Positions 30,396-40,219 of a stretch of DNA of 64,000 bases are shown here, one piece after another. How positions within the stretch are numbered: the first letter of the stretch is position 1; every line of letters begins with the position of its first letter. The stretch comes from Promethearchaeota archaeon. GTDB lineage: Archaea > Asgardarchaeota > Hermodarchaeia > Hermodarchaeales > Hermodarchaeaceae. The DNA lies in assembly GCA_048939625.1 (NCBI GenBank), contig JBHLPH010000007.1, positions 30,766-94,765 of the forward strand. The letters run 5' to 3'. Position numbers and translations under genes: made by a program. Below the pieces are notes generated by a model. That model saw only the letters and a list, made by a program, of their open reading frames with translations, ran no database searches and had not been told where the DNA came from.

Positions 30396-31187
30396 TTACA
30401 GTTTGTTTCGAATACGATTCGGAAGTGGATCCAAGATAATTTGATTTGTGCGTCTAGCTTGACGAATGAATTCAAGCGGTGTCTCGCTTCGCATTAGAAA
30501 GCGTAGGGTTTCGTCATCTGTGAAAAATCCTAATGTTGGGGATCCAAATTTTCTAGCAACAACTTCGAGTAATTTTCCATAATCGGTTTGCCAATCTTTA
30601 AAGGTGAATCCAAGCGGTTCTAAGGCTTTCGTTGTCGTAATCCGTTGAATTCGACCATCAGTAACCTGAAGGATTAGACTTGCCCATATGGTGTTTTCTT
30701 CGAAAATTGTGATAACACTCACGAAATTCGTAGGGAGTTGATCTAGCGCCATTCGGATTCGTTGAAATAACGAGAATAGTCCTTTCTCCCAAAATTCTCG
30801 AGGGAAGACATGAAATCGCCGATTGAACTCCTTTTCTAGACTTGAGTGGGCGATTTCAAGATATTGGAAGATATCCATTTCAGGGGCAAAAGCTGCTTGC
30901 ATTCTTGCTAACAGGTATACAACTAATCCTTGCTCAACCATAAACACGGCATCGATCCCTTTTCGTTGCTGCATCTGTTGTCCAATAATCGATGGGGTTG
31001 AGAATGGACCCGTTAAATCTGGTCGTAAACCCTGTGTTGAATGGAAGGCATGAATAATTTCACTGTTCTGGTACAATAGGAAAAGGATTGCTCGCTCGCT
31101 AGTGAACTGTGGGAGGGTGGATATCAGGTTGAACCAATGGGTGGTCTCAACATTTTGAAACTCATAATTATCATCAAGACGTCTCAT
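30396..31187 (-). CDS. hypothetical protein translationally coupled to the GH35 gene
   Basis: 263 aa; ATGA overlap with upstream stop. Confidence 0.8.
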   Translation of the reverse strand: MRRLDDNYEFQNVETTHWFNLISTLPQFTSERAILFLLYQNSEIIHAFHSTQGLRPDLTGPFSTPSIIGQQMQQRKGIDAVFMVEQGLVVYLLARMQAAFAPEMDIFQYLEIAHSSLEKEFNRRFHVFPREFWEKGLFSLFQRIRMALDQLPTNFVSVITIFEENTIWASLILQVTDGRIQRITTTKALEPLGFTFKDWQTDYGKLLEVVARKFGSPTLGFFTDDETLRFLMRSETPLEFIRQARRTNQIILDPLPNRIRNKL

Positions 31188-34979: not shown

Positions 34980-35166
34980 TTTCGGGTCACCGGAAATGGT
35001 ACTTGTTCTACGTCTTTGTTGCCTAGGTTTGATTTAAGACTAATGTCGTTTTCTGATTTTGATTCGAAGATTTTTCTATATGGTTGCGGAAACCTTTAAT
35101 TGCTTAGAATCCACGCTAACCTTATGAATCTCCGTTAGGGACTTTGGCAAAAGGGTGGTGAAACTA

Positions 35167-36270
35167 ATGTTGCACTCGGTATTCATTTTTCTTCAATCCG
35201 GTGAAACCCTTGTCTCACACAGTTCACCAGTGGTAAAACTCGAACAAACGCTCCTAACGGGACTTCTCACTGCTATCCGCGAGTTTGGACATGAAGCAAT
35301 TGCTGAAGAAATTCGCACTATCGGCGCTGGTGAATATCGCTTCCACTACGACGTATATGATAAAACATCTTCCTCAGCTTCTCAGCAAGAAAAACCGCGT
35401 ACTGCAAGTGATGCCCCGATTGGTCTCATTACTGTCGGTTTAGCGGACGGAAATGCTGATGAACTCGAGGTCCAAGCCGTCCTCCACAGTCTCAATGTCC
35501 TCTTTTATGCTCAGTATGAATCACTTCTCCAGAAATGGAATGGTGATGTAAAACCTTTCCAAGCCTTTCTTCCCATCATCAATGATGCTCTTGAAGCGCA
35601 TAACGAACGATCACAAGTTGCCAAAAGGCGAATCTCATCCGCTGAATACATTCTTGAAACCTTCGAAGAAACACTGGACGTGGTCCTTCTTAACATCCTC
35701 GTTGGAAATGCCGTCATTATTACAGGTGTCAAGAATAAGAAATTTGAAGAACTTAGCGAAGCCATTGATAATGTGCTCCCATTCACTGTTCCCAACATGC
35801 TTGGGATTACGGATCTTGAAACTGCCCAGGGGATTCTTCAAAGCCGCGATGACCAACAACGCAAACGTCCAACACTTCTTGGTGTCTCTGAGAAAATCTA
35901 TCGGAGCTTAACCACTCCTAAAAACTTGGAACATTATCTGTTTGTGAACCTCTCCAAAAAATCACCTGTCTTTATTGCTCCCTCAAATCAGCCAAGTATG
36001 GATTTAGCCAAACAGGCTCTTGAAATGGCGAAGGATGACGTAGCAATCCAGGCAAAACTTCTTGAACTACAACTTGAAACTCTCCGAGCTCAACTTGCCA
36101 GCTTCATGGAATTTCGACGCAGTGCTCAACACTTCACACTGGAGCACCTGCGAGCATTAATGCACCTTGATTCTGAGCGTTTCCGGTTACTTACCTATTT
36201 ATCTCAGGAATCTATCCTTGTCCAACCAGCTGACCATGAAGTTTCTACAGTTTCAGACGATGATTCGTGA
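35167..36270 (+). CDS. longin domain plus DENN-like module (folliculin-like small-GTPase regulator candidate)
   Basis: N-terminal MLHSVFIFLQSGETL...LLTGLLTAIREFGHE (longin); NILVGNAVIITG...NVLP...TLLGVS and a helical tail resemble folliculin-type DENN. Confidence 0.7.
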   Translation: MLHSVFIFLQSGETLVSHSSPVVKLEQTLLTGLLTAIREFGHEAIAEEIRTIGAGEYRFHYDVYDKTSSSASQQEKPRTASDAPIGLITVGLADGNADELEVQAVLHSLNVLFYAQYESLLQKWNGDVKPFQAFLPIINDALEAHNERSQVAKRRISSAEYILETFEETLDVVLLNILVGNAVIITGVKNKKFEELSEAIDNVLPFTVPNMLGITDLETAQGILQSRDDQQRKRPTLLGVSEKIYRSLTTPKNLEHYLFVNLSKKSPVFIAPSNQPSMDLAKQALEMAKDDVAIQAKLLELQLETLRAQLASFMEFRRSAQHFTLEHLRALMHLDSERFRLLTYLSQESILVQPADHEVSTVSDDDS

Positions 36271-36518
36271 TTTGGCGCGCTAACTTTTCATCGGGTTTTC
36301 TGGGAATTTCTCTGTGCATCTTCTCAAAAATTAACGGGGCGTTTTAATGTTCATTTAGTCCATTTAATGACCGACTTAATTTTATTTTTTTAAAAATAAC
36401 CACTAATTAGCTTTTTTATGGAATTCTCTTCCATGACCTTTTTGTTCTGAATGTTAGTTTTTTTATTTTTCTTAATTATACGCATTTCTAAGCCCATTAG
36501 ACGACGTGGAGAAAACAT

Positions 36519-36584
36519 GCGAAGCTTTATATGTGCAAAAATGAAAATGAATGAACATCAATGAAATTTAATGAGGTATAATGA
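36519..36584 (+). promoter_or_regulatory. BRE/TATA followed by helically phased AATGA array
   Basis: GCGAAG-CTTTATAT (36519-36532); AATGA at 36540, 36550, 36560, 36570, 36580 (extra copy at 36546). Confidence 0.75.
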
Positions 36585-36587
36585 GAG

Positions 36588-36791
36588 ATGGCAACCGAGA
36601 AAGCGTCGGCGTCTGGGAGAGCTCAAACGGACGCGCTGACTCGTCTCCAAGCACCCAGCATCGAGGAGCAACTCAAAGAAGCGATGCCCTTGGTGACCGC
36701 GACGCTCCGAGTGCGGATTGCCCGAACAATTGCACAACTTCGTGAAGACGAATCACTAGCCAAACAAAAAAGAGGAGTGAGGAATTCGTGA
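36588..36791 (+). CDS. small helical hypothetical protein (first gene of AAA+ operon)
   Basis: 67 aa; GAGGT upstream; GTGA overlap with next gene. Confidence 0.7.
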   Translation: MATEKASASGRAQTDALTRLQAPSIEEQLKEAMPLVTATLRVRIARTIAQLREDESLAKQKRGVRNS

Positions 36792-37069
36792 GCGACAAAG
36801 CCAAAGCGCTTCAACCCAAGCTACGACTTCAAGAAGCTATGGCCCAACTTGATGCCGCAACCGTACTTGAACTCATCACCCCCACCACCCGGACCTTCCA
36901 ATGTCAACGTAATGGTCACTTGGTCGATGGCGGGTATTGTGCCCTCTTCTGTCCAATTGGAAAGGAGATGGTAGTCTATGATCCCACCGGCGGCATTGAA
37001 GTCGTCTGTCCCTTCGCTTTCAACAATTTCTTGGGGCGAATGGGAGACGGTACTTCCAGCGATGCATAA
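36788..37069 (+). CDS. small Cys-rich (putative metal-binding) protein
   Basis: 93 aa; FQCQRNGH...YCALFCP...VCPF; GGAGTGAGG upstream. Confidence 0.72.
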   Translation: MSDKAKALQPKLRLQEAMAQLDAATVLELITPTTRTFQCQRNGHLVDGGYCALFCPIGKEMVVYDPTGGIEVVCPFAFNNFLGRMGDGTSSDA

Positions 37070-37143
37070 GGTAACCGGATCTGGGAGAAGTGTGGAAAGA
37101 AACAATCTGGTGCTGAAAACACCTCAACCATTGGTGAAGGAAT

Positions 37144-38304
37144 ATGTTCGCTTTTGATGAGCGATTAAAAAGTCTAGGCTGGTCGGATTTTCCATTTCGT
37201 ATTGATGTTATGCCAGAGGTGTTTGCAGGGCACAAGCGTCTACTCAATCCCTTAACGATTCAACTTCGAACAGGGAATATCATTCTTATTGAAGGCGGTC
37301 GCGGTACAGGGAAAACCCATGTGCTTCGATGGATCAATGATTCATTAACCAAATCAAAGGGGATGGTTCCACTTCTCATTTCGGAACCCCTCGATTCATC
37401 CATTCTCAGTAATGCCTTAATCGGATTGATGAATCACCGACTGATACAGAAGAATAAAACCGTGCCAACTCTTGTCGACGTGATGGTAGCAAAGATCCGA
37501 GAGTTCTACCAACAGAGTTCCCAACGTATTGTTTTGTTAATTGATGATGGGCAATCCCTCGCGCTTGGTCAAGACGATTCTGAAGTCGTTGAAGTTGAAA
37601 AGCGAAAAACGGTTCGCTGGTTACGTGTCCTCAGCGATTTGCAAGCGGTTGTGGTGTTTATTGCAGGGCTCACGGGGTTTTCTCAGGCTCTCACCAGTAT
37701 ATTTCCCCCTATTGCTGAGCGAGTAACCTTGGAATTTACCTTAGAGACCGAAGGACCTGACGGTCTCGAAGTTTTAACTGTCAAAGAAACCGAGCAGCTC
37801 ATTCGAGACAGAATCAAACATTTTGGTGGCAAGGGATTAACACCCTTCAACGCTGAGGCTATTGAAGAGATTCATCTCCATACTCGTGGGTATCCACGAA
37901 GCACTTTACGGTTTTGTGAAAACATCATTTCCATGGCCTTTCAAGAAGATACCCCTGCTGGGGACCGGATAACCCGAGAGTTTGTCCAACAGGTCATCAA
38001 ACAACGACCCAGTCCACCACCTGTCACTACATTGGCACCTTCAGCTCTTGATCAAACACGGTTTGTTGAAACCAGTCCAGCGGTTGAGGACGAAGAGTGG
38101 TTTGAAGAATTCGATGAGCTCACGGCTACTCAACGTGAAATTCTTGCGATTACCAAGGAGTTGAAACGCGTCACCTCCGCAGTTGTAGCCGAAGAAATTG
38201 GAATTACTAAGGGTACTGCTTCAAATGAACTCAAAAAGCTGTACGATATGCAGAAACTACAGCGACGGAAAGGTTATCGTGGTTTTGAGTATCTTCCTCG
38301 CTAA
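37144..38304 (+). CDS. AAA+ ATPase (ExeA/MshM-like) with C-terminal winged helix
   Basis: LGWSDFPF, Walker A GGRGTGKT, Walker B LLIDDG, FIAG, IHLHTRGYPR; wHTH LTATQREIL...KGTASNELKKL. Confidence 0.88.
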   Translation: MFAFDERLKSLGWSDFPFRIDVMPEVFAGHKRLLNPLTIQLRTGNIILIEGGRGTGKTHVLRWINDSLTKSKGMVPLLISEPLDSSILSNALIGLMNHRLIQKNKTVPTLVDVMVAKIREFYQQSSQRIVLLIDDGQSLALGQDDSEVVEVEKRKTVRWLRVLSDLQAVVVFIAGLTGFSQALTSIFPPIAERVTLEFTLETEGPDGLEVLTVKETEQLIRDRIKHFGGKGLTPFNAEAIEEIHLHTRGYPRSTLRFCENIISMAFQEDTPAGDRITREFVQQVIKQRPSPPPVTTLAPSALDQTRFVETSPAVEDEEWFEEFDELTATQREILAITKELKRVTSAVVAEEIGITKGTASNELKKLYDMQKLQRRKGYRGFEYLPR

Positions 38305-38423
38305 TACTTTTTACCATCTCGCAGGTTTCTCCAAGAATCTCCCTAAGAAGCTTTGAGACACATATCTTTAAGTGACACTTCCACAGAAATAAGATTAGAA
38401 AATCCTGTCGCCGGGACCAGCCT

Positions 38424-38954
38424 ATGTCACACGATGCCTTCGATTACCTTTTCAAAGTCGTGCTAGTCGGTGACGCAGAAGTTGGAAAGACAAGCCTCAC
38501 CACCCGCTTTGCCTATGGCACGTTCACAGATGGCTATATCTCCACCCTCGGCGTTGACTTCATCGTAAAGTCACTTCCCCTCAACAACTACATAGTTAAA
38601 CTCCAAGCATGGGATACAGCTGGACAAGAACGGTATGCTGGTGTACGCCCGATTTATTATCGAGGGGCGAAAGGTGCATTATTGGTCTTTGATATTACCA
38701 TGCGTCAAAGTTTCGTGAATGTGGATAAATGGTATGATCAGATTCGGAAATTTTCTGGGAATGACGTTCCTATCATTTTAGTAGGGAACAAGATTGATCT
38801 CGTGGATTCTCGAGTTATCAGTACTGATGAGGTTCAGGCGTATGCGGCACAAAAAGGAATGCCCTACTTTGAAACCAGTGCAAAAACCGACTATGCCGTC
38901 AATGAGGTATTTCAGAAACTAGCAGAGGTCATTCTATCGAAGGAACTTGGCTGA
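38424..38954 (+). CDS. Rab-like small GTPase (no prenylation tail)
   Basis: FDYLFKVVLVGDAEVGKTS, TLGVDF, KLQAWDTAGQE, YYRGA, LVFDIT, NKID, ETSAK. Confidence 0.95.
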   Translation: MSHDAFDYLFKVVLVGDAEVGKTSLTTRFAYGTFTDGYISTLGVDFIVKSLPLNNYIVKLQAWDTAGQERYAGVRPIYYRGAKGALLVFDITMRQSFVNVDKWYDQIRKFSGNDVPIILVGNKIDLVDSRVISTDEVQAYAAQKGMPYFETSAKTDYAVNEVFQKLAEVILSKELG

Positions 38955-39010
38955 GAAGTGACAAAAGAATAGCAGGGTCCTTTGCAGTAGAATTTCAGGG
39001 TCGAATTGTG

Positions 39011-40219
39011 ATGTCTGAGGATACCTCCTCATCAGAAGTTCAACCACCCAAACGAATGTGGAAACTCTTAGAACAATATCTAGCCCTGAGTGAGAAGTAT
39101 GATCAACGGACTCGAAAAATCGAAGATGATGCCAATCAGCGGCTGGTACAATACTTCCACGAAAAATCACCGGAATTAAAACACCATCTCATCGATACCA
39201 ACACGCTGACTGAATATTTGGATGAATTTGCTAAACATTTGCTAATTTATTATGGTTATTATCGAAGTGTTCGGCGAAGCATGGCCACGTTATTTGCATC
39301 TATTGGGATCACGGATCATCGGATGTTTGCGGAAATGGTTCGTGCAACTAGTGATCCCCGTGTGAAGGTTCAAATCAATGAGTTGGATTCACAAGGCGTA
39401 GCGTGGTTTTTACGTCAGTTTCTGGATGAGTACCAAGCAGTTGAACGGCATATCAACAGGCTAACGGGATATTTACCGAAATTAGATGAAGCGGTAAAAC
39501 AAACTTACAGCGAAAGTATGCGCCGGTTCCATGATGTCCTGGCTTATGTGATATCAGAGGAATCTAAGGCCTTACGAATGGCAGGTCATGAAAAGGTAGA
39601 AGCAGCGATTGAAGATGATGATCTAAGTAGTAAGGCTAATCTTGTGGTCGAAGCTATTGAATACTTTGTAAAGGATGCGCAAAACCATCCAACCTATATT
39701 CTCACTGAATCCGTTGGCTATTTTGGAACTGCTGAATTGGAAGAATTCGACAATAAAATAACTTCGTTTAAGAAGGTCCATGAGCTGTTTAAAGAGCATG
39801 TCAGCCTTTCTAATCGTACGCGGTGGATCTATGAACGTCATCATGCAACACTCTTTTCAAGTATTTTCGAAGGGTCGCATTTCGAGCTGTTGGAAATACG
39901 AGATCACATCCGAAACGGCGCGAATATGAAAACCTTTCAACAATATATCCGAGATTGTCCTGGCATGCTTTTAGGCGTTTCACAGGCCTATTCTCTTTAT
40001 CTCGAGTATAGTGCTTATTCAAAACAAATGCTCACCTTAGTTGATGCATATCGCGAAATGTCGGAATTCCTTCAAAGTGAACTTCTGCTAATTCTTTATA
40101 CGATGGAATTGCAAAGGAATCATTTGTACCTGGAGATTCGAGATGATTTCCGGCAAACCTTAGATGAATTTCAACAAACCCTGTTAGAAGTGTGTTCATT
40201 GAATCCTTCTGAAGACTAA
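39011..40219 (+). CDS. all-alpha-helical hypothetical protein
   Basis: 402 aa, long amphipathic helices, almost no Pro; 56 bp after the Rab gene. Confidence 0.82.
   Translation: MSEDTSSSEVQPPKRMWKLLEQYLALSEKYDQRTRKIEDDANQRLVQYFHEKSPELKHHLIDTNTLTEYLDEFAKHLLIYYGYYRSVRRSMATLFASIGITDHRMFAEMVRATSDPRVKVQINELDSQGVAWFLRQFLDEYQAVERHINRLTGYLPKLDEAVKQTYSESMRRFHDVLAYVISEESKALRMAGHEKVEAAIEDDDLSSKANLVVEAIEYFVKDAQNHPTYILTESVGYFGTAELEEFDNKITSFKKVHELFKEHVSLSNRTRWIYERHHATLFSSIFEGSHFELLEIRDHIRNGANMKTFQQYIRDCPGMLLGVSQAYSLYLEYSAYSKQMLTLVDAYREMSEFLQSELLLILYTMELQRNHLYLEIRDDFRQTLDEFQQTLLEVCSLNPSED

Follow-up and report, generated by a model that had tools for sequence, protein, structure and literature searches.

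A longin-DENN protein of Hermodarchaeaceae encoded upstream of a Rab-like GTPase gene: predicted fold, relatives and candidate clients

Longin-DENN proteins are regulators that switch GTPases of the Rab, Rag and Arf groups during membrane traffic and nutrient signalling in eukaryotes. The locus described here raises the question of whether an Asgard archaeon encodes such a protein, and on which GTPase it would act. The gene concerned, at 35167-36270, lies in a stretch of 64,000 nucleotides (the window; positions 30,766 to 94,765 of contig JBHLPH010000007.1, assembly GCA_048939625.1) from a Promethearchaeota archaeon of the family Hermodarchaeaceae, whose source genome is a 2.31-Mb metagenome-assembled genome (MAG), 87.6% complete. 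A sequence-only reading had proposed that it encodes a folliculin-like protein, forming a regulator/GTPase pair with a co-oriented Rab-like gene about 2.1 kb downstream. Predicted structures answer the first part of the question: the 367-residue product is modelled as an N-terminal longin domain followed by a C-terminal DENN module.

Predicted fold and spread of the family

In the AlphaFold2 (AF2) model of the whole protein, which is confident over aa 151-350 (predicted local distance difference test, pLDDT, ~85-96), the DENN module comprises an alpha/beta core with strands at aa 182-186, 210-214, 236-240, 258-261 and 268-270, followed by a C-terminal helical part (aa 292-348). Comparison against 48,161 solved chains with VIA, which is independent of Foldseek, placed DENND10 (Z 13.0), two FLCN chains (11.3 and 11.2), SMCR8 (10.9), DENND1A (10.9) and a second SMCR8 chain (7o2w, 8.8) at the top. 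These six best chains, all of them DENN proteins, align over 177-211 residues spanning aa 127-362, and the next fold after the DENN chains, that of AAA+/STAND domains, follows at Z 7.2 and covers ~100 residues only. Foldseek searches with the confident part returned DENN proteins in all of the top 12 places (FLCN, SMCR8/C9orf72, DENND10, DENND1A/B), and the first-ranked cluster of an ESM-Atlas shape search was PF02141, DENN. Language-model neighbours, taken as a lead only, were Folliculin and C9orf72 clusters (0.76-0.81). The gene and its parts are as follows.

35167-36270, forward strand: gene of the longin-DENN protein, 367 aa (P0001); open reading frame (ORF), 38 homologue clusters, AF2 models, fold searches
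35154-35161, forward strand: Shine-Dalgarno-like box GGTGGTGA, 5 nt ahead of the ATG at 35167; read from the sequence
35167-35541, forward strand: longin domain, aa 1-125; domain model with pLDDT 81.5 and predicted template modelling score (pTM) 0.76, fold searches
35359-35424, forward strand: insertion of ~22 residues (aa 65-86), low-complexity and Ser/Gln/Lys-rich, in the hairpin from longin strand 4 to strand 5; alignment
35635-36234, forward strand: DENN module, aa ~157-356; AF2 model, VIA, Foldseek

The longin domain required a model of its own. The whole-protein model falls below pLDDT 50 over aa 1-116 and leaves the longin unplaced relative to the DENN module. A model of aa 1-155 by themselves, built from an alignment with distant relatives in it, reached a mean pLDDT of 81.5 and showed the longin topology, in the order strand-strand-helix-strand-strand-strand-helix, followed by a conserved W-x-G-x4-F-x2-F helix. 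With this model, VIA returned the VAMP7 and Sec22 longins at Z 13.7, all 50 listed rows being longin or roadblock folds, while the top Foldseek matches were TRAPP Bet5/Trs23, AP sigma and Mon1-Ccz1. Only the first five alignment rows, those closest to one another at 84-100% identity, carry the hairpin insertion; it is missing from every other row and is modelled as disordered (pLDDT below 50 at aa 70-77). When short relatives were sought with aa 1-150, only fragments of the protein's own family came up. The predicted structures and the fold searches by Foldseek and VIA thus bear out the order first read from the sequence, a longin-like N-terminus and then a DENN module with a helical tail; the DENN fold, whose lack would have told against that reading, is present in the predicted structure.

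The homology to DENN proteins rests on predicted structure, and the sequence searches weigh against it. The window protein matches no Pfam family at E<=10. Among 25 aligned members, single ones matched Folliculin_C (0.14), Longin (0.11) and Fuz_longin_1 (0.24), none of them significantly. Searches of the PDB with the sequence and with the profile yielded nothing relevant, and the PF02141, PF16692 and PF11704 profiles found no match in the whole genome. None of the sequence searches reached folliculin, which was reached by fold comparison alone.

As for the gene itself, its 38 homologue clusters (41-91% identity, all with intact frames) argue that the ORF is not a chance one. They come from Asgard MAGs and sediment metagenomes only; an exhaustive search of 1.8 billion representatives recovered just nine clusters, and the family is therefore real and conserved yet narrow. 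The homologues are labelled Promethearchaeota, apart from one Candidatus Hodarchaeota whose identity to the window protein is 73% by BLAST and 75% in the alignment. A sample of 400 genomes of the phylum gave full-length matches in the window's own GTDB family alone, with just the N-terminal domain matching elsewhere. With no full-length match in the other sampled GTDB families, the independent lineages for the synteny comparison below are metagenomic contigs only. Translation is taken to start at the ATG at 35167 rather than at the GTG at 35155, because the GGTGGTGA box lies 5 nt upstream of the former and the homologues begin there too, with a shared MT[LM]HSVF; both observations uphold the start originally proposed. 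The four motifs quoted in support of a DENN module also exist and sit in conserved columns: NILVGNAVIITG (aa 176-187), IDNVLP (aa 200-205), TLLGVS (aa 236-241) and LRALMHLDSERFRLLTYL (aa 331-348). They map onto DENN core strands 1 and 3 and the last helices in the AF2 model and the alignment, and the invariant or nearly invariant residues of these regions include A182, P209, T236, L238, G239, V240, R338, L342 and L345.

Comparison with eukaryotic longin-DENN proteins

The best structural match, DENND10 (FAM45A; PDB 8p0v chain M; root-mean-square deviation 4.2 over 178 residues), serves the human Commander complex as its DENN subunit. It measures 357 aa against the 367 aa of the window protein, the alignment is colinear (model 157-356 to chain 157-357) and both are minimal longin plus DENN proteins, at a sequence identity of just 12%. 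Commander is specific to eukaryotes; none of its components is known in the archaeal genome, where none was sought. DENND10 is not known to have guanine nucleotide exchange factor (GEF) activity, a point that counts against reading the archaeal protein as a regulator. FLCN, SMCR8 and DENND1A all lie within ~2 Z units of DENND10 in VIA.

FLCN (6nzd_H, 3v42) and SMCR8 (6lt0_B, 7o2w_B), which share the longin plus DENN layout, are subunits of GTPase-activating protein (GAP) complexes acting on Rag and Arf GTPases. Their DENN modules match at Z 11.3, 11.2, 10.9 and 8.8 and at Foldseek E 3e-4 to 6e-4. The window protein differs from them in having no sequence-level match to either, no GP motif and no invariant arginine in the longin. 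Its longin is not closest to those of the FLCN or NPRL2 type: folliculin-type longins score lower in VIA (Lst4 Z 9.0, a GATOR1 chain 9.7) than those of VAMP7, Sec22, TRAPP and Mon1. The neighbouring GTPase, moreover, is Rab-like.

The GP motif, located before longin strand 2, is reported to mark FLCN, NPRL2, SMCR8 and C9orf72 as well as one class of longins in Asgard archaea, whereas DENND proteins, adaptins and TRAPP lack it (PMC12290439). In the window protein's family (family A) the loop from strand 1 to strand 2 reads S-G-E-T/N in the alignment, with G12 nearly invariant and followed by E, L or S, never by P. The extended longin alignment has no invariant column occupied by arginine; R38, in helix 1, is nearly invariant in family A only. 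Since both the motif and an invariant arginine are missing, a DENND-type role, as exchange factor or GTPase-binding adaptor, would be favoured over a folliculin-type GAP; this preference is weakened by the indirect nature of the missing motif as an argument against GAP activity. The description of the protein as folliculin-like accordingly stands for its longin plus DENN architecture and does not extend to folliculin in particular, given that DENND10 matches best, that the GP motif is lacking and that neither a folliculin nor a DENN family of Pfam is matched.

Among DENND-type proteins, DENND1A and DENND1B (6ekk, 3tw8) are GEFs for Rab35, and their DENN module aligns at Z 10.9 over 192 residues with 9-16% identity. 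DENND proteins, as reported, and the window longin are both without the GP motif. The GTPase encoded in the window is highly similar to their client Rab35 (E 2.9e-46), with Rab1A and Rab3 slightly higher. Differences are also evident: GEF activity is only putative for the archaeal protein, and the archaeal GTPase has no prenylation cysteine.

Genomic links to small GTPases

The co-oriented Rab-like gene that had been noted downstream is confirmed, starting 2,153 bp past the DENN stop codon. Its best solved relative is Rab1A (6.6e-50), followed by Rab3, Rab35, Rab1B and Sec4, and the best 60 PDB matches are all Rab, Ypt or Sec4. The motifs GDAEVGKT, WDTAGQE, YYRGA, NKID and ETSAK are readable in the sequence, with switch motifs of the Rab type. 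The protein ends in ...ILSKELG without a C-terminal prenylation Cys, and its orthologues (66-80% identical) likewise have none. The genes and signals around it are listed below, with identities and occurrences referring to related contigs.

36271-36587, forward strand: AT-rich spacer, 317 bp, after the DENN gene; read from the sequence
36380-36391, 36412-36417 and 36458-36470, forward strand: oligo-T tracts in the spacer; read from the sequence
36526-36532, forward strand: TATA-like TTTATAT in the spacer; read from the sequence
36588-36791, forward strand: conserved ORF, 67 aa, helical, no family; 49-78% identity in L001, L007, L013 and L014
36788-37069, forward strand: conserved ORF, 93 aa, four Cys, no family, 4-nt overlap with the 67-aa ORF; in L001, L003, L007, L013 and L014
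37144-38304, forward strand: P-loop ATPase (AAA_22) with a C-terminal winged-helix (MarR-like) domain, 386 aa; PF13401 E 2.1e-8, weak helix-turn-helix (HTH) matches at aa 326-376
38367-38372, forward strand: TATA-like TTTAAG, 52 nt upstream of the GTPase gene; read within that gene's own 120-bp upstream region
38424-38954, forward strand: Rab-like small GTPase, 176 aa, co-oriented with the DENN gene; PF00071 Ras, E 5.6e-59
39008-40219, forward strand: all-helical protein, 403 aa, 54 bp after the GTPase gene; no Pfam family; in L003, L007, L013 and L014, absent in L001

The order of DENN gene, small ORF or ORFs, AAA_22 ATPase and Rab-like GTPase is unchanged in all five related contigs, with identity of the DENN protein down to 48%. 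The ATPase is 59-76% identical in all syntenic loci. The flanks of this conserved core vary among the contigs by gain or loss of ABC_tran, a duplicated PNPOx, the 403-aa gene and a radical SAM gene. From the 27 Ras-family matches in 2.31 Mb, the chance of a GTPase gene lying within 2.2 kb on either side is ~5%. 

Two observations at this locus weigh against a pairing of the two genes. A surrounding block of ~15 kb is itself largely syntenic in the same contigs, with GH35/42, PNPOx and M42 peptidase genes upstream and an M28 peptidase gene downstream, so that conservation of the core is only weakly specific to the DENN/GTPase pair. The oligo-T tracts and the TATA-like box suggest that the DENN transcript ends in the spacer and that a new promoter begins there, and the DENN and GTPase genes thus probably have separate promoters and transcripts. 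Modelled once as a complex, the 367-aa protein and the Rab-like GTPase scored 0.29 against a mark of 0.32, which counts neither for nor against binding. The link of the DENN gene to the neighbouring Rab-like gene is suggestive only. Conserved linkage, expected if the two form a pair, was found insofar as the order is kept in five contigs, within a larger conserved block; the pair itself has the Rab-like neighbour and the conserved order in its favour, three genes, the 317-bp T-rich spacer and the larger syntenic block on the other side, and is still a hypothesis.

Some further features of this region deserve mention. AATGA recurs in the spacer at 36540, 36546, 36550, 36560, 36570 and 36580, with five copies exactly 10 nt apart (36540-36584), running into the start of the 67-aa ORF. 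This ORF and its 93-aa neighbour show 35-78% identity across all the related contigs and keep a constant place between the DENN gene and the gene of the AAA_22 winged-helix ATPase. The nearest language-model clusters of the 403-aa protein are those of the dynein heavy chain N-terminal family (PF08385; 0.93, 21/30 matches), again a lead only. This protein was considered as a DENN or Roadblock partner, a suggestion left unsupported by its lack of a family and its language-model neighbours, which are helical bundles resembling dynein tails.

Farther afield, a relative of the window protein that is 43% identical, P0037 (on L004/L005), sits in an unrelated context and is directly flanked by genes of 292-aa and 273-aa GTPases. 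Beyond these lies the gene of a 781-aa protein (L004 8358-10703), which brings the GTPase genes near P0037 to three. The two flanking GTPases are full-length homologues of the longin-GTPase fusions listed below (tblastn, 30-36% identity); hhalign of the longin profile against their N-termini gave probabilities of 13.9% and 5.2%, respectively, which are not significant. Against the 781-aa protein, the longin-profile hidden Markov model scored 24.5 bits. In L012, a relative of P0037, the upstream GTPase gene is missing, a point against the GTPase link. In the 781-aa protein, a longin and two G domains, one Arf-like and one Rab-like, are joined to an SCP2 lipid-transfer domain at the C-terminus; positions 855-1184 of the window, on the reverse strand, encode an SCP2 segment with 64.5% identity.

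In other Asgard families the longin subtype of the window protein, W-x-G-x4-F-x2-F helix included, also occurs as a fusion with an Arf/Ras-like G domain; the match in L015 reaches an hhalign probability of 99.75% (E 2.7e-27). Fusions were found in the source genome (G000) too.

L015 6661-7557, L016 6645-7583, L017 6782-7759 and L020 2058-2930, strand -: longin-GTPase fusions, together with those of the next line 289-325 aa (298 aa in L015, 325 aa in L017), longin first and G domain second; longin subtype match
L025 (G000:C3) 736-1605 and L021 (G000:C60) 743-1612, strand -: longin-GTPase fusions of the source genome, 289 aa each; longin profile 36.5 and 29.2 bits
L009 1501-3046 (G000:C9:52893-54438) and L006 6001-9271: paralogues of family B, 349-352 aa, described below; a conserved gene of 181-183 aa overlaps the 3' end

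These associations hint at ties of the family to small GTPases in general, which are better supported than the tie to the neighbouring Rab-like gene. The same longin subtype heads a protein of more than 650 aa in the source genome (open frame of 736 aa; L010 1420-3375, G000:C71), where it also forms a stand-alone protein of 216 aa (L011 1444-2094, G000:C42), and proteins of ~690 aa with this subtype recur in other Asgard families.

The source genome encodes, on contig C9, a further longin-DENN paralogue (family B, 349 aa), which aligns to aa 2-246 of the window protein at an hhalign probability of 99.3%. Within the window's GTDB family, 17 of the 19 genomes carry family B (the source genome included) and 17 of 19 carry family A. 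The genomes without each are 72-80% complete, so that absence of either family from two genomes is not established. The family B gene is not adjacent to a GTPase gene; a Robl_LC7 (Roadblock) gene lies ~1.75-1.8 kb downstream of it, both in the source genome and in the metagenomic relative L006, a Guaymas-type sediment contig. Elsewhere in the source genome (G000:C12:54392-56651), a tight cluster holds four Robl_LC7 genes together with the gene of one divergent Ras-like GTPase (29 bits), and resembles a Ragulator/MglB-type arrangement.

DENN-domain proteins in Asgard archaea, which the sequence-only reading had named as reported, were indeed described by Liu et al. (bioRxiv 10.1101/2020.10.19.343400; Nature 2021). 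These authors reported Heimdall-group proteins with the folliculin-like order of longin and DENN domains, and they predicted an operon in which a DENN gene goes together with those of a Rab-like GTPase and a LAMTOR1-like Roadblock protein. The window locus shares with these systems the Asgard host, the longin and DENN domains, a Rab-like (not Rag) GTPase gene nearby and the proposed role as regulator of a small GTPase. Its cluster differs from that operon in having no Roadblock gene (none of the 13 PF03259 matches of the genome falls on the window's contig, C81), in the two small ORFs and the AAA_22 winged-helix ATPase between the DENN and GTPase genes, in its likely separate promoters and in a family to which Pfam is blind.

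Proposed role and its meaning

We picture a minimal two-domain protein in which long helices would join the longin to the DENN module, in a size and layout like those of DENND10 and of the structured core of folliculin. By analogy with every characterised longin-DENN protein, and in line with the genomic associations above, it would bind a small GTPase and control its nucleotide state or its recruitment. We hold it to be probable, with some reserve, that the protein is a regulator or binding partner of a small GTPase, with a GEF or an adaptor favoured over a GAP. Candidate clients would be the Rab-like GTPase 2.15 kb downstream and the longin-GTPase fusions of the genome, the latter possibly by pairing longin to longin. 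Granted the regulator role, the neighbouring Rab-like GTPase is a possible client, if on balance a doubtful one. In a more speculative form, which we consider unlikely, the W-x-G-x4-F-x2-F helix would define a distinct Asgard longin subtype serving as a pairing module, whether it occurs by itself or joined to either DENN or an Arf/Ras-like GTPase domain. Docking of the longin-DENN protein on the fusions, longin to longin, would bring its DENN module onto the G domain of the fusions, with the Rab-like neighbour as a possible second client. We liken this docking to the platforms of Rag, Ragulator, FLCN-FNIP and Mon1-Ccz1.

A protein of this build could also be a non-catalytic longin-DENN scaffold, as DENND10 is in Commander, its place near the Rab-like gene being inherited gene order of no functional meaning. 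That DENND10 is the best structural match, with near-identical length and a colinear alignment, would fit such a scaffold, as would the synteny of the whole 15-kb block, the likely separate promoters and the position of family B away from a GTPase gene. However, GTPase genes flank the relative on L004, whose context is unrelated, fusions of the longin subtype to GTPase domains recur, and the five-gene core stays intact while flanking genes change; we see the scaffold as a credible explanation with a minor share of the probability. Far from inert, the protein might instead be a GAP subunit of the folliculin/SMCR8 type, pairing with family B as in FLCN-FNIP or SMCR8-C9orf72 and stimulating GTP hydrolysis via its longin. 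Here the architecture is the same as that of FLCN, the top structural matches include FLCN and SMCR8, a full-length paralogue is present in the same genome (both families being found in 17 of 19 genomes), and the language-model neighbours carry the Folliculin and C9orf72 families, as a lead only. The S-G-E-T/N loop in place of the GP motif, the lack of an invariant longin arginine (R38 being conserved only within family A), the low rank of folliculin-type longins and a neighbouring GTPase that is Rab-like and not Rag or Arf all speak against a GAP subunit, and co-occurrence of the two families among close relatives of one family carries little weight. We judge this explanation decidedly unlikely.

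The partner might, finally, be the adjacent unit of small ORFs and AAA_22/winged-helix ATPase, for instance in a nucleic-acid or regulatory process, and not a GTPase at all, in which case the DENN-like core would be just a P-loop-like alpha/beta domain. The ATPase gene and the two small ORFs do always stand between the DENN and GTPase genes, the alpha/beta core matches AAA+ and STAND domains at Z 6-7, and the last helices match winged-helix domains at Z ~6, three family members giving weak linker-histone or HTH matches. But DENN proteins score Z 11-13 and cover twice the residues, including the helical part; the core sequence has no Walker A motif, and the spacer lies between the DENN gene and the ATPase unit. 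We give this explanation hardly any credence, and return to the protein as a putative regulator or binding partner of small GTPases.

The concept of Asgard DENN proteins linked to Rab-like genes was already published by Liu et al., and the window protein is a further example, not a new kind. Asgard longin-DENN proteins bear on the origin of the eukaryotic GTPase-regulating machinery, and to these the locus adds a compact family undetected by Pfam, with two paralogues per genome. The putative regulator of 367 aa, the Rab-like GTPase of 176 aa and the longin-GTPase fusions are small soluble candidates for a first biochemical test of an archaeal DENN protein. If true, longin-to-longin docking would be a prokaryotic forerunner of the eukaryotic logic by which longin platforms regulate GTPases.

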